Shown here: one piece after another, positions 49,001-53,661 of the stretch | Position numbering within the stretch: position 1 is the stretch's first letter | How the letters are laid out: every line of letters starts with the position of its first letter | Assembly (NCBI GenBank): GCA_048939015.1 | Contig: JBHLPW010000021.1 | Coordinates: 1 to 64,000 of the forward strand | Direction of reading: 5' to 3' | Length of the DNA stretch: 64,000 bases | Source: Promethearchaeota archaeon | GTDB taxonomy: Archaea > Asgardarchaeota > Lokiarchaeia > Sigyniarchaeales > SOKP01 | Notes under the pieces: generated by a model | Database searches by the model: none | What the model was told of the DNA's origin: nothing | Seen by the model: only the letters and a program-made list of their open reading frames with translations | Position numbers and translations under genes: made by a program

Positions 49001-49018
49001 TTATTATGTACCTAACTA
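49001..49018. promoter_or_regulatory. Putative MarR operator (degenerate) in front of the MarR gene
   Basis: TTATTAT-gtac-CTAACTA; right half identical to the perfect palindrome at 50614-50631. Confidence 0.5.
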
Positions 49019-49031
49019 AGATTTGATTATC

Positions 49032-49496
49032 ATGAATAAAGAAAACTCTTCAGAATCTACAGATAAATGTTGCCAACCTAAAGATTTAGTAGATGTATTT
49101 GAACTTATAAATATTCTAAATAAAAAATATGAAAAACTCCAGCGTGAAAATATTCAAACTTTAGAACTTACTCCAACTCAACACTTTATTCTGAGAGAAT
49201 TATGGGATACAAACGGGCAGCAATTTAAGGATTTGGCAGAGACTTGTAATTGTTCTAGATCTACTATTACAGGGGTAGTTGATACTATGGAAAAAAAGAA
49301 TTTAGTTTATCGTGAAGCAAATCCTGATGATAGAAGAAGCATTTTAGTAAAACTTACAAATAAAGGAAAAAAATTTAGGAATGTTGCTCCTCCTTTAGAA
49401 TCTATTGTAAATGGTTGCTGTCCTGAAATTAAAACAGAAGAGATTAAAATTCTTGGAGATTTATTGAGAAAATTGTTAAATTCTTTGATTATCTAA
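49032..49496 (+). CDS. MarR-family regulator with two Cys-Cys pairs and a CxC motif
   Basis: LTP.Q..IL, ST.T..VD.MEKK.LV.R..NP.DRR...V.LT.KG; KCCQ, TCNC, GCCP. Confidence 0.9.
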   Translation: MNKENSSESTDKCCQPKDLVDVFELINILNKKYEKLQRENIQTLELTPTQHFILRELWDTNGQQFKDLAETCNCSRSTITGVVDTMEKKNLVYREANPDDRRSILVKLTNKGKKFRNVAPPLESIVNGCCPEIKTEEIKILGDLLRKLLNSLII

Positions 49497-49509
49497 AAGC
49501 TATAAATGA

Positions 49510-49565
49510 TTGTTATGCTTTTAATTATAAGGAGCAAAACACTTATATGGTTAACGTCCTGATTA
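49510..49565 (+). promoter_or_regulatory. Promoter/operator module, copy 1
   Basis: 44/56 identical without gaps to 50576-50631; includes CAAAAC-ACTTATAT BRE/TATA and TGGTTAA-cgtc-CTGATTA. Confidence 0.7.
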
Positions 49566-49628
49566 TTACTATATTATCAAACTTATAATAAATAAAAAGT
49601 CAACTTTGACTGTAATATTACCGATAAG

Positions 49629-50348
49629 ATGGAAAACAGCAAAAAATTATACAAGAGAAAAACTCTGATGACAAATGCTCAATTAATTAAAAAAATTGCT
49701 GAAGATGTAGGGTTTGATTTATGCGGAATCGCTCCGGTGAGTCGGTTTAATGAAGCTCCATCAGGGTTTCATCCCACAGATGTTTACAAGGATTGTAAAT
49801 CTGTTATTGTATTCGCAAAAACAGTTCCAAAAGAGTCACTTAATGCCTTAAGTATGGTTCCATATTCTCATATGGGGAGTTTAATTATCCAGGAAGTTGA
49901 TAATTTAACATTAGGATTTACCAGAAAATTGGAAGAGTTGGGTATTGGTGCCATTCCAATTCCCACTGATGATCCCTATGAACATTGGGAACCAGATAGA
50001 CTATATGGAAGGGCAATATTATCATTAAGACATGCTGGTCAACTTGCTGGACTTGGAATATTGGGGAAAAACACTCTTTTAATCAATAATCAATTTGGCA
50101 ATATGATTCAACTTGGAGCTATTTTAGTGAATATAGACTTAGAAGCTGACTCAATGGCAAATTATGAGGGATGTATACCAGATTGCAGTATTTGTTTGGA
50201 TGCTTGTCCTAAAAAAGCTCTAGATGGAAAAACTGTAAATCAACAACTTTGCCGCACCTATTCAATTTACAAACATATAAAAGGGTATGTTCTGAAAAAG
50301 TGTAATATTTGCCGAAAAGTGTGTCCCCATGCTTTAGGATTAAAGTGA
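49629..50348 (+). CDS. Epoxyqueuosine reductase (QueG)-like cobalamin/4Fe-4S protein
   Basis: G.DLCGIA, KSVIV, SLRHA...AGLG.LGKN.L......G, C..C..C...CP..A, C..CR..CP. Confidence 0.85.
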   Translation: MENSKKLYKRKTLMTNAQLIKKIAEDVGFDLCGIAPVSRFNEAPSGFHPTDVYKDCKSVIVFAKTVPKESLNALSMVPYSHMGSLIIQEVDNLTLGFTRKLEELGIGAIPIPTDDPYEHWEPDRLYGRAILSLRHAGQLAGLGILGKNTLLINNQFGNMIQLGAILVNIDLEADSMANYEGCIPDCSICLDACPKKALDGKTVNQQLCRTYSIYKHIKGYVLKKCNICRKVCPHALGLK

Positions 50349-50760: not shown

Positions 50761-50842
50761 AAATATACAATTGTCGAAATATGAGATATGAGAGTTTCAT
50801 AAAACGATGTTTTAGCAAAAAAATCATTAATTGTGATATCAT

Positions 50843-51442
50843 ATGAATGTCATTGGTATATCAGGTACTCCCCGGAAGAAAGGTAATAGTGAACTTCTTT
50901 TAAGGTATGCTCTAAAACCTTTCGAAAATAATGGATGGAATGTTAAAATATTCCTCTTAAGTGAATTAGAAATTAAACCTTGTAATGCTTGTGGCTCTTG
51001 TAATGAAACTGGTATCTGTATTATTAACGATGATATGGAAGATATTTATAATGCATTTCGATGGTGTAATGCGATTATAATCTCAAGTCCAGTTTATTTT
51101 TTAAATGTTAGTGCTCAATTGCTTGCCCTATTTCATAGACATTATGCAGTAGATTCTGAAAAACCTTTGGAAGGAAAAGTTGGCGGAGCTATTGTGGTTG
51201 GTGGTGGGACTGCGGGTGGACAAACAATATCTCTTAATGCTATTTATACATGGATGCTCTCATGCGGAATTATATGTGTTCCTGGTAAATTATTTGGAGT
51301 AAAAGCTGTAGCTAGCAAACCAGGTGATATATTAAATCAAAAAAACCAGTTAAAACAAGCGGAAATACTTGGATTCAATGTTCTAAAAACAGCAAAAGCA
51401 CTTCAGAAAACAATAGAAATTGAAGATTTAATCATCACTTAA
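50843..51442 (+). CDS. Iron-sulfur flavoprotein / flavodoxin-like FMN reductase
   Basis: ISGTPRK.GNS, PC.AC..C.....C...DDM, SPVYF, GKVGGAI.VG. Confidence 0.9.
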   Translation: MNVIGISGTPRKKGNSELLLRYALKPFENNGWNVKIFLLSELEIKPCNACGSCNETGICIINDDMEDIYNAFRWCNAIIISSPVYFLNVSAQLLALFHRHYAVDSEKPLEGKVGGAIVVGGGTAGGQTISLNAIYTWMLSCGIICVPGKLFGVKAVASKPGDILNQKNQLKQAEILGFNVLKTAKALQKTIEIEDLIIT

Positions 51443-51644
51443 TTAACATTTTAAAAAATGTAATCAAAGATGTGATGAATTTAAGGAGGAAAAAGAAAAA
51501 TCTCAATCGTGTGAAGATTGATGTTACTAAAAAAAATTCTGAAAATAAATTAGAAATTTGAGAATCAAAATTTTTATTTTTTTTAAAAATTAATTATGTT
51601 AATATAAAATAAAAAAAGGTGGAAGTAAAATCGCTGTTGTTTAT

Positions 51645-53303
51645 ATGCGAAAATTGGAATTAGAACCAGAGTCATATGATGAAAAATTCACAACCCTCAC
51701 TAAAGGAGTCAATATAGAAGTAAAAGATTGGATATTAGAAAGAATAAATTCAGATGAAAAAATCCTCGAAGTAGGTTGCGGTACGGGAAATCTTGCAGCA
51801 AGGATGGCGCTTAAAGGTAATGATGTTCTAGCAATAGATAAAAACCAGAGAATGATAACAACTGCAATGAAAAATTATCCTTCTAAATCAAACCTTAAAC
51901 TGTTATATCAAATAGGCAATATAGATGATCTATCTGTTGATGAGGGCTCTAAAGATCTCATAGTTAGTACTTTTTTACTTTCAGAACTTAGACCTTTTGA
52001 ACAACAAATTTTTCTAAGAAATGCATGGAAAGCTTTGAAACCAAATGGTCGAATGATTATTGCAGCTGAATTTGTGCCATCAGGCTTTTGGGATCTGTTG
52101 TTTAAAATAAAAAGATGGCGATATAAAAAGAAATTGAGAAGACTAAAAATAGAAAGTACATTTTTGGTAAAGTGGTTTTTTAATTATTTGGAACCTATTG
52201 GATTTAAAATTTCTTTAGTAAAGAAATGGCGACATGGATCGATTCAGGTAATAGAATTAGAAAAATTTAATGCTTTAGATAAACCTGGGTATTATAGACC
52301 TGAATTAAGAAAATATAAAGGTATTAGTGCCCAAATGAGTATTTACCGATGCATTTTTACTGGACAAACAGACCATGTACCGATTGAACCAGGAATTTAT
52401 CAATCTGGCAATCCTAATGAAAATTCTCCCATTATTGTTACTGCTAATTATGTTTATACATACATTAGGGTGATGCGTGCTCTCAAAGGATTAGATGCTT
52501 GGGTCTTATGCGTTGATTCTAGAGGAATAAACGTTTGGTGTGCTGCACGAGGAAATAATTTTGGAAATAAGCAAGTGATAGAAGCTGTTGAAGCTTCAGG
52601 TATAGTAAATATTACTAATAAAAAGACATTAATTGTACCACAACTGTCTGCAGGAGGAATAGCTGTACCATTAATAAAAGCTGAGGCCCCAAATTTTCCA
52701 TTTCATATTTTATATGGACCCGTTTGGGCTAAACATATTCCTAAATTCTTAGAGGAACGTCCTGCTCGAAAAACAGATGAAATGAAATTAGCAAAATTTA
52801 CAATTTCGCATCGTTTTCGAGCTGAAATTACACATACAACGTTCTTATTTCGCAAAATCTTCATATGGCCAAGTGTAGCCTTGATTTTACTATTTCTTGG
52901 ATTAAGTTTCATTAATACAATATGGTTAACAGAATTATTGATTGTAGGAGAGTTATGGCTCTGGATTATTATAGCAAACGCACTTATAGCATTATTATTC
53001 CCAATAGCGAACTTTACACGAAAATTTATCACAAAAGGAGTTGTATTTGGAATTATTAATATTTTAATATTCGTTGGAATTTCTTGGCTTTTTCATTACT
53101 CATTGGCAACAATTCTTCTAAATTTACCTTTTTACTTTTGGTTGGCTTTTTTTTCAACAATGTCGTTTAGTGGATACAGTATGGCTACTAGTCCAAGAGA
53201 AATCCAAGATGAATATCCAATCTTCAGTAAAATTAATATGATTTTATTGATAGTGGGCCTTGTAACTAAGGCTTTTGGTTTTATATTTTTTTTAATATTT
53301 TAG
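51645..53303 (+). CDS. Class I SAM methyltransferase fused to an HgcA-like corrinoid-binding and transmembrane protein (start may be ATC 51630)
   Basis: ILEVGCGTG, D.IVSTF.LSEL, LKPNG; then I.PG.Y..GNP...SP..VTANY, D.RGINVWCAA (Cys at 52539), PQLSA.G, GPV.A...P.FL; 4-5 C-terminal TM helices. Confidence 0.88.
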   Translation: MRKLELEPESYDEKFTTLTKGVNIEVKDWILERINSDEKILEVGCGTGNLAARMALKGNDVLAIDKNQRMITTAMKNYPSKSNLKLLYQIGNIDDLSVDEGSKDLIVSTFLLSELRPFEQQIFLRNAWKALKPNGRMIIAAEFVPSGFWDLLFKIKRWRYKKKLRRLKIESTFLVKWFFNYLEPIGFKISLVKKWRHGSIQVIELEKFNALDKPGYYRPELRKYKGISAQMSIYRCIFTGQTDHVPIEPGIYQSGNPNENSPIIVTANYVYTYIRVMRALKGLDAWVLCVDSRGINVWCAARGNNFGNKQVIEAVEASGIVNITNKKTLIVPQLSAGGIAVPLIKAEAPNFPFHILYGPVWAKHIPKFLEERPARKTDEMKLAKFTISHRFRAEITHTTFLFRKIFIWPSVALILLFLGLSFINTIWLTELLIVGELWLWIIIANALIALLFPIANFTRKFITKGVVFGIINILIFVGISWLFHYSLATILLNLPFYFWLAFFSTMSFSGYSMATSPREIQDEYPIFSKINMILLIVGLVTKAFGFIFFLIF

Positions 53304-53355
53304 AGTAAAATGAAATAAATAAGATAAAAAAAATAATATAATTAAAGAAGAAAAG

Positions 53356-53661
53356 GTGGTAATAATAACATTAAAAACAACAACAATTAAACTTTCAGAT
53401 TTTATTCCAAAAATCGCGATTAATCCTGAATTATGTACAGGATGTGGTATATGCGGTGAAGTATGCCCATTTGGAATACCAACACCTACAGAAAATGGAA
53501 AATATGAAATGCTTGAACCTGAACGTTGTACAGAATGTTCTGCCTGTAAAAGAAACTGTCCAACGATGGCAATAATTCTACAAGAACAAAAAGGGTGTGG
53601 ATGTTTATGGAATGCTCGTGCAGTAGCCAAAAATCCACAAAATAATAGTTGTTGTGGTTAA
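53356..53661 (+). CDS. HgcB-like 2[4Fe-4S] ferredoxin with C-terminal Cys-Cys
   Basis: CTGCGICGEVCP, CTECSAC..NCP..AI, GCGC, terminal SCCG; directly after the HgcA-like gene. Confidence 0.85.
   Translation: MVIITLKTTTIKLSDFIPKIAINPELCTGCGICGEVCPFGIPTPTENGKYEMLEPERCTECSACKRNCPTMAIILQEQKGCGCLWNARAVAKNPQNNSCCG

Follow-up and report, generated by a model that had tools for sequence, protein, structure and literature searches.

A six-gene locus of an Asgard archaeon appears to encode, at its core, a methyltransferase of the HgcAB superfamily that is made by two genes, sits in the membrane, depends on a corrinoid and is equipped with its own S-adenosylmethionine (SAM) domain. Its role would be the methylation or detoxification of metal(loid)s, with arsenic as the leading substrate; we put the probability of this reading at about 55%. 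The locus occupies positions 49001 to 53661 of a 64,000-nucleotide stretch (the window), which corresponds to positions 1 to 64,000 of the forward strand of contig JBHLPW010000021.1 in the Promethearchaeota archaeon assembly GCA_048939015.1 (4.86 Mb, ~95% complete; GTDB lineage Archaea; Asgardarchaeota; Lokiarchaeia; Sigyniarchaeales; SOKP01). An earlier note on this DNA had listed six + strand open reading frames (ORFs) and seen in them a complete inducible methylation unit, and all six were found at their coordinates. In related genomes four of the genes recur together, those for a MarR regulator, a Cys-Cys peptide, a methyltransferase-HgcA-like fusion and an HgcB-like ferredoxin. The broader proposal, a sensor-regulated unit for SAM- and corrinoid-type methyl transfer with a thiol-rich peptide and a link to soft metal(loid)s, gains support from an operator that co-varies with the regulator and from relatives that lie within ars operons.

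The first core gene (51645–53303, + strand) encodes a fusion protein of 552 aa. Its N-terminal part (aa 1–207) is taken as a CpaM-type class I SAM methyltransferase, CpaM (NF043040) being by far the best-scoring methyltransferase model in NCBIfam (133–142 bits against a cutoff of 180, over the first 206 residues). An HgcA-like corrinoid-binding domain follows (aa ~227–371), with the cap helix GINVWCAARG and its cysteine, Cys299 (codon at 52539–52541), and the structure model places five transmembrane helices at aa 387–551. The model (predicted local distance difference test, pLDDT, 70) consists of a Rossmann methyltransferase (aa 11–207), an alpha/beta corrinoid domain (aa 227–371) and the five long helices. 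The SAM motif E42-G44-C45-G46-T47-G48 with D65 and the corrinoid stretch G294–G303 are invariant in the ortholog alignment, and NVWCAARG is unchanged across 12 orthologs. CpaM is recognized by a class I SAM motif and by physical association with an HgcA-like protein; both are found here, the association as a covalent fusion. Over aa 245–541 the protein scores 181 bits with the HgcAB_like fusion model (NF043039, cutoff 285) and 172–174 bits with HgcA (NF040863, cutoff 275). Its homologs are annotated merely as “methyltransferase domain-containing protein.” Most orthologs apparently start 5–9 codons earlier, with (M)NKIAVVYMRKLE or MAVVYMRKLE; in the window these codons are kept in frame at 51618–51644 (GGSKIAVVY) with no usual start codon, so that translation probably begins at ATG 51645.

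The second core gene (53356–53661, + strand) begins 52 nt past the fusion gene and encodes an HgcB-like 2x[4Fe-4S] ferredoxin. Its best NCBIfam model is HgcB (NF040864), at 55.7 bits against a cutoff of 99. Two CX2CX2CX3CP cluster motifs are invariant in the alignment, and the protein shares with HgcB an extra internal cysteine and a C-terminal cysteine pair (tail SCCG). It reads GCGC where canonical HgcB has GVGC, and CTECSAC instead of C(M/I)ECGA. Where the contig extends far enough, the gene follows immediately on the fusion in nearly all related loci, those of bacteria among them.

The fusion has more than 800 homologs, of which the best 120 are all 544–578 aa long, 63–85% identical and from Asgard assemblies. 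Matches were found in 140 of 301 sampled genomes of the phylum, including 58 of 68 in the window's family (51–85% identity) and 22 of 22 in its genus, and orthologs above ~51% identity are confined to its order in this sample. Submitters placed the close fusion and QueG-like homologs variously in Thor-, Hod-, Hermod-, Heimdall- and Odinarchaeota; because the orthologs above 51% identity fall in one GTDB order, the NCBI names of many of these assemblies probably cannot be relied on. Full-length methyltransferase-HgcA fusions at ~30% identity occur in other Asgard families, Chloroflexota, Poribacteria and some Desulfobacteraceae. The canonical HgcA of known methylators aligns to fusion residues ~240–540 only.

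Which of the six genes belong to the system? ORFs were called in all loci fetched from related genomes and contigs (L-numbers, such as L013 and L111; C50 and C89 are other contigs of the organism's own genome) and matched to the window proteins, and the remainder was clustered. Thirteen loci are syntenic: one shared flank holds the gene for a 197-aa membrane protein, the other those for gelsolin-like, 161-aa, cupin and major facilitator superfamily proteins. The regulator is MarR in eight of them and an ArsR/SmtB protein in the same slot in two, with none in the remaining three; the Cys-Cys peptide is found in 10, the flavoprotein is adjacent in five and the QueG-like gene in two (the window and L111). 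The conserved core is the fusion and the HgcB-like ferredoxin. Given how few loci hold the flavoprotein and the QueG-like gene, the latter otherwise unlinked, the six genes are better described as a lineage-specific elaboration of this core than as the single complete unit of the earlier note. The claim that control is by MarR rather than ArsR stands for one sub-lineage only; overall, an ArsR with a CVC motif accompanies the fusion in 13 loci (including a Thorarchaeota clade) against eight for MarR, and among close orthologs there are eight MarR and eight ArsR partners (L013 ArsR included).

The regulator of the window (49032–49496, + strand) is a Cys-rich MarR-family protein, presumably a repressor (PF01047, 68.6 bits against a cutoff of 24.6, E 4e-19). 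The ORF opens with TTG at 49023, and the likely start is ATG 49032. The CC, CxC and GCC cysteines pointed out earlier are present in the sequence, and C14, C72, C74, C129 and C130 are invariant in seven orthologs (67–76% identity).

Its putative operator lies in front of the peptide gene. The main promoter block (50568–50631, + strand) consists of an upstream element, TTGTTAGGA..TTAATTAT, a BRE/TATA-like box (BRE, B recognition element), AACAAAACATTTAAATA, and then the perfect palindrome TAGTTAGCTTCCTAACTA (50614–50631), TAGTTAG-N4-CTAACTA. The block is conserved in relatives with the consensus TTGTTAGGA..TTAATTAT..GAAAC-TTTA(T/A)ATA-GTTAG-N4-CTAACTA. In an alignment of nine loci, it precedes the peptide gene in all seven of the MarR type (the window and six relatives) and is absent from both of the ArsR type, though peptide and fusion are present there. 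This co-variation of the palindrome with the regulator type is the strongest indication that TAGTTAG-N4-CTAACTA is the MarR operator. A scan of the whole 4.86-Mb genome found no other site with 0–1 arm mismatches; it returned 15 sites with two, none of them convincingly in a promoter. The operator of L111 is degenerate, with two arm mismatches.

An operator shared by three genes had been proposed, and for the peptide gene the palindrome bears this out. The two weaker copies carry no significance alone, since eight sites with three or fewer arm mismatches occur across the 64-kb window. The first lies in the MarR promoter (48994–49018, + strand), where a TATA-like GTATAAAT is followed by the degenerate operator TTATTATGTACCTAACTA with three arm mismatches (49001–49018); the second, TGGTTAACGTCCTGATTA (49548–49565), precedes the QueG-like gene and has 4 of 14. 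They gain support from two further observations. The half-site CCTAACTA stands at an equal distance from the TATA-like box upstream of MarR in seven genomes, and the main promoter block has a diverged duplicate before the QueG-like gene, as direct repeat D1 (49502–49565, + strand, against 50568–50631; 64 nt, 77% identity). A second small palindrome, AGTCAACTTTGACT (49598–49611), is found in the leader of the QueG-like gene. Behind that gene and just upstream of the main promoter block, a pseudogene fragment (50477–50560, + strand; repeats D5, D20 and D4) repeats in degraded form the first ~85 nt of the flavoprotein gene. It is 75–80% identical to 50843–50926 at a constant offset of 366–367 nt and has an early stop, and its presence shows that the locus underwent rearrangement.

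Directly behind the main promoter is the gene for an acidic peptide of 28 aa (50674–50760, + strand), MANKNQSCCSEEDKENKEETQSNSGCCS, with a Cys-Cys pair at each end. Orthologous ORFs of 27–35 aa occur in 10 loci with the pattern M..K...CCSE...QS...CC; their lengths differ in frame, and the GAGG ribosome-binding site is conserved. The peptide accompanies the fusion under either type of regulator, and in five of the eight MarR-type loci the operator promoter leads directly into peptide and then fusion, with no flavoprotein between them. In the window, a T-run (T5AT8) and a TATA-like AT-rich element (51570–51615, + strand) precede the fusion gene, with similar elements in the peptide-fusion spacers of L015, L016, L017, L018 and L021; these might terminate transcription in part or serve as an internal promoter. 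Because of these elements, transcription of the fusion from the MarR promoter, like co-transcription of the locus genes in general, is put forward here as presumptive.

The connection with arsenic comes from the relatives. The ArsR-type partners score above the ArsR/SmtB cutoff and carry the CVC motif (ERCVCELEAIL) as well as an N-terminal CxCxxC, and in five of six Thorarchaeota loci ArsR lies directly upstream and co-oriented. Deeper orthologous loci have the order ArsR (− strand), DUF166, ACR3, fusion and ferredoxin, followed by two small genes without a known family; the ACR3 scores 270 bits against a cutoff of 283. In one of these a bona fide ArsM (347 bits, cutoff 263) is inserted directly before the fusion, and another has a thioredoxin-type ArsC-like gene (130 bits, under the cutoff of 174). 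A canonical Nitrospirota hgcAB locus in the sample is likewise followed by ArsC-like and ACR3-like genes. In Pseudodesulfovibrio mercurii ND132, an ArsR co-transcribed with hgcAB responds to arsenic and S-adenosylhomocysteine (10.1101/2022.10.17.512643), and ars genes, occasionally MarR genes, have been found near hgcAB (PMC10349881).

The two small genes of the ars-type loci (89–146 aa and 78–120 aa) follow the HgcB-like gene at L013:8025–8294 and 8425–8673 and also in L027, L029, L030, L031 and L034; the first is present in L032 too, and its L031 version has a D-A-C-A-C motif. In those lineages the two may belong to the system as additional parts.

Directly observed are the genes present, their conservation, the co-variation of the operator, the placement in the trees and the ars context; from these we infer the chemical steps and the inducer. 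Most likely the fusion charges its own corrinoid with a methyl group from SAM and hands this on to a soft metal(loid) bound by thiols, and inducer and substrate are most likely arsenite (or antimonite) rather than Hg(II). Arsenite or antimonite is favored because a CVC ArsR fills the MarR slot and because the deeper relatives adjoin ArsR, ACR3, ArsM and ArsC. For HgcAB, SAM is the proven methyl donor to the Co(I) form, and HgcB reduces the cobalt (PMC11588087). In the window, the HgcB-like ferredoxin would reduce the cobalt center to Co(I), and the CpaM-type domain would then transfer the SAM methyl to it, yielding methyl-Co(III) under Cys299. The acceptor of the methyl group would be a thiophilic metal(loid), held by those cysteines in the tail of the ferredoxin that do not bind clusters, and the small Cys-Cys peptide would feed or buffer this substrate. 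The dimeric Cys-rich MarR would occupy TAGTTAG-N4-CTAACTA, which lies close behind the TATA box in the promoter of the peptide gene, and also the half-site at its own promoter, and would presumably leave the DNA once its cysteine pairs bind the inducer.

The two remaining genes joined the locus in sub-lineages and may supply electrons or process the corrinoid. The flavoprotein (50843–51442, + strand; PF03358, 96 bits) has the flavin mononucleotide (FMN) reductase fold and the compact cysteine motif CNACGSCNETGIC (C-NA-C-GS-C-NETGI-C, CX2CX2CX5C). It thus fits the iron-sulfur flavoprotein (ISF) type, for which we take a compact CX2CX2CX4-7C motif, as in the Methanosarcina Isf family, to be the mark. 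ArsH was considered for this protein and rejected, no ArsH model being among its NCBIfam matches; a PDB sequence search with it gave no informative match.

The QueG-like gene occupies 49668–50348 (+ strand; the ORF opens at 49629), with ATG 49668 the likely start because homologs are ~226 aa long. Its product of 226 aa carries two 4Fe-4S motifs, which align with those of QueG, and matches TIGR00276 in the iron-sulfur half only (aa 134–233, profile 134–242; 59.6 bits against a cutoff of 200, E 2.5e-16) and the solved QueG 5d6s over aa 124–225 (E 2e-13). In a Foldseek search with its structure model (pLDDT 66, the C-terminal third at low confidence) the top 50 hits are all QueG, reductive dehalogenases (PceA/RdhA) or MMACHC (E 2e-9 to 1e-3, TM-score ~0.46). 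A B12/Fe-S reductase fold, as the earlier note had it, is therefore plausible, and over its whole length the model resembles only B12 proteins of the QueG/RdhA/MMACHC (CblC) superfamily, if at that low TM-score. Identity as an epoxyqueuosine reductase is not established: the match to TIGR00276 is far from full-length and far under its cutoff, the solved QueG chains measure 367–437 aa, and the C-terminal tRNA-binding extension is missing. Archaea are, to our knowledge, not known to make queuosine, so the QueG name given by the annotation pipeline is doubtful. The gene is linked to the fusion in the window and in L111 only, an independent metagenome contig with 84–90% DNA identity to the window, where it lies directly behind the peptide gene and under the operator. 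In other genomes it sits on other contigs among unrelated genes (a thiamine pyrophosphate enzyme, ThiD-ThiN, an FrhB-like protein), with no consistent partner.

It is possible, though we consider it unlikely, that the substrate is no metal at all. An organic or halogenated one-carbon compound might be processed, or the Cys-Cys peptide or another thiol methylated, with MarR sensing the compound. MarR regulators commonly bind organic ligands, a protein with the B12 fold of the reductive dehalogenase/QueG superfamily has been recruited into the operon in two organisms, and a small peptide beside a methyltransferase resembles peptide-modifying systems. The enzyme is, moreover, nearly core in the family, and a 2026 preprint describes halomethane dehalogenation by HgcAB (10.64898/2026.04.26.720869). 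However, a SAM-donating domain does not suit a dehalogenase cycle in which the substrate itself gives the methyl group. Most lineages with the enzyme lack the peptide, in most genomes the QueG-like gene lies apart from the fusion, and the CVC ArsR in the regulator slot, with ACR3, ArsM and ArsC beside the pair in relatives, points to a metalloid.

Could the pair instead be an HgcAB ortholog and true mercury methylase, turning Hg(II) into methylmercury, with a fused domain that merely speeds loading from SAM? Vicinal cysteines bind Hg(II), and the likeness to canonical HgcAB, as in ND132, is considerable. The fusion is homologous to HgcA over aa ~240–540, the transmembrane part included, and the cap-helix cysteine, the five-helix membrane domain and an adjacent 2x[4Fe-4S] ferredoxin of HgcB homology, with an extra cysteine and a C-terminal pair, are all present. 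The methyl source is SAM in ND132, where it has been shown, and is implied to be SAM in the window by the fused domain; ArsR partners and ars neighbors are frequent in both cases. Asgard archaea have also been listed as putative methylators in a sediment survey (PMC12484752).

The differences are more telling. The window fusion adds an N-terminal SAM methyltransferase and is ~30–33% identical to canonical HgcA. The consensus protocol demands N[VI]WC[AS][AGS]GK in HgcA and C(M/I)ECGA in HgcB (PMC10087281), rules that NVWCAARG, in which the cysteine is kept and Gly-Lys replaced, and CTECSAC both break. Both proteins score under their model cutoffs, and the HgcAB_like fusion model does not fit either, the ferredoxin being a separate gene. 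Among 215 homologs, the cap-helix lysine is found in none of 70 methyltransferase-fused forms and in 128 of 141 stand-alone forms, a pattern rather than a test, because related sequences are not independent.

Phylogenetic placement agrees with the motifs. In a midpoint-rooted FastTree tree of 125 sequences and a quick IQ-TREE tree (LG+G4) of 61, canonical Lys-bearing HgcA forms one clade with support of 100, and the window's clade lies outside it. A branch with support of 100 separates the window's clade in the IQ-TREE tree; in the FastTree tree the clade itself has 100, and 99 together with the Thorarchaeota fusions. The root is not relied upon, since a single CdhE outgroup gave a very long branch inside the window's clade. 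Tested organisms with non-canonical fused HgcAB do not methylate mercury (PMC4646819; PMC10087281), and ars genes, with no mer genes, were identified among the neighboring genes. On account of motifs, scores, tree placement and the behavior of the tested organisms, the fusion and the ferredoxin are not members of HgcA and HgcB proper, and a role in making methylmercury is improbable, although the working principle is probably shared with HgcAB.

A thiol or redox stress module, with MarR as oxidation sensor, the flavoprotein removing oxygen or peroxide, the peptide as redox buffer and the corrinoid enzyme merely co-located, is very unlikely: many MarR proteins of the OhrR type sense oxidants via cysteine, OhrR is among the weak NCBIfam matches of the regulator, methanogen iron-sulfur flavoproteins reduce O2 and H2O2, and flavoprotein and peptide both lie under the operator, but peptide and fusion stay together when an ArsR metalloregulator replaces MarR, and the flavoprotein is missing from most of the syntenic loci, including the five MarR-type loci in which the promoter leads straight to peptide and fusion.

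Several observations nevertheless weigh against the preferred reading, arsenic methylation by the fusion-ferredoxin pair. The ars context stems from relatives and not from the window locus itself, and MarR regulators often sense organic compounds or oxidants. No ACR3 was detected in the organism's own genome at its ~95% completeness, and contig C89 of that genome already carries a regular ArsM, which leaves no obvious need for a second arsenic methylase. Arsenic-binding cysteines of the ArsM type are missing from the methyltransferase domain, whose sole invariant cysteine sits in the GCGTG motif. The cysteine ends of the peptide are retained and its acidic linker drifts, with mixed dN/dS values (ratios of nonsynonymous to synonymous substitution rates) of 0.07–1.8 over 27–28 codons only, which suggests weak constraint on the linker. 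Finally, the T8 run may uncouple the fusion gene from the MarR promoter.

The locus can be compared with two further known arrangements. Fused HgcAB has been reported from Asgard archaea and Pyrococcus (PMC10083202; PMC4646819), and the Pyrococcus furiosus type (fused HgcAB with CpaM; NF043039/NF043040) has the same three modules, a cap helix without lysine and a position on the same side of the midpoint-rooted FastTree tree. In that type CpaM is separate and the ferredoxin fused, whereas in the window CpaM is fused to the HgcA-like part and the ferredoxin is separate, with a thiol tail. The organism itself has both, since contig C50 carries a paralogous locus (L012:1360–3119, + strand) in which the gene for a free-standing CpaM (223 aa; 242 bits, above cutoff) is translationally coupled to that for an HgcA-like-ferredoxin protein of 363 aa, the stop of the one overlapping the start of the other. 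The HgcA-like-ferredoxin protein has the cap helix GINVWCGACG and is 35% identical to the window fusion over aa 247–494. The window locus therefore represents the same three modules cut differently. Triple fusions of methyltransferase, HgcA-like part and ferredoxin (~580–650 aa) are found in Desulfobacteraceae and other bacteria (L046, L055; proteins P0144–P0148, P0153, P0154 and P0170), so that all possible cuts occur in nature. Neighbors of the C50 locus include ICMT/PEMT-like membrane methyltransferases and a His-rich ZIP-like transporter.

In common with ArsR-ACR3-ArsM operons, the locus would sense metalloids through thiols and take its methyl group from SAM; such operons contain the orthologous pair in relatives, and in sister genomes a CVC ArsR takes the slot of MarR. 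It differs in having MarR as regulator, no ACR3 found in the genome and a methyl route via a corrinoid. Upstream of the ArsM gene of contig C89 (L110 ~1500–2400, − strand; 337.7 bits, above cutoff), and on its strand, lies a gene for an AbrB/SpoVT-like protein of 129 aa (L110:2582–2971) with three vicinal cysteine pairs (ACCP, ECC and PCC). Two different DNA-binding scaffolds beside methylation genes, MarR and AbrB/SpoVT-like, thus share a Cys-Cys design. An AbrB/PrlF-like gene upstream of hgcA has been described in archaeal methylators (PMC10349881).

Two genes flank the locus. The 197-aa membrane protein (48250–48843, − strand) is divergent from the regulator gene and is a conserved syntenic neighbor, adjoining MarR or ArsR in 11 related loci. 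It has no Pfam or NCBIfam match, an Atlas search returned uncharacterized archaeal clusters only, and its family is unassigned. Convergent with the HgcB-like gene is a gelsolin-repeat gene (53698–54540, − strand; weak PF00626 match), syntenic in 10 related loci, which is of the Asgard cytoskeleton type and unrelated to the methylation locus.

To call the module undescribed, as was done at first, overstates the case. NCBIfam holds models for CpaM and HgcAB-like fusion proteins, and published work already covers Asgard archaea with fused hgcAB, the tie between hgcAB and arsR or other ars genes, and SAM as methyl donor. New are the methyltransferase-HgcA architecture with a separate ferredoxin, near-core in one Asgard family; the mutual exclusion of cap-helix lysine and fusion; the Cys-rich MarR with a defined putative operator, swapped for ArsR in the same slot; and the conserved Cys-Cys peptide together with the recruitment of a B12-fold protein.

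Parts of the locus lend themselves to testing: the 18-bp operator, the MarR with its many cysteines and the Cys-Cys peptide, which at 28 aa can be synthesized. In metagenome surveys such genes could be miscounted as Asgard mercury methylators, despite falling short of the accepted criteria. The native function of HgcAB has long been an open question, and a link to arsenic was proposed only recently. A natural fusion of a SAM methyltransferase with an HgcA-like protein provides independent support for SAM as the donor, and the operon contexts of the relatives (ArsR, ACR3, ArsM, ArsC) point to arsenic. It is conceivable, as a tentative extension that we would hold with little confidence, that the methyltransferase-fused, lysine-less HgcA homologs carry out a B12-dependent anaerobic methylation of arsenite or antimonite, distinct from ArsM, and represent the older state of the superfamily. 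Canonical HgcA would then be derived, having lost the SAM-loading domain and gained the cap-helix lysine. If true, this would account for the ties of hgcAB to ArsR and ars genes and tell what purpose HgcAB served before anthropogenic mercury.

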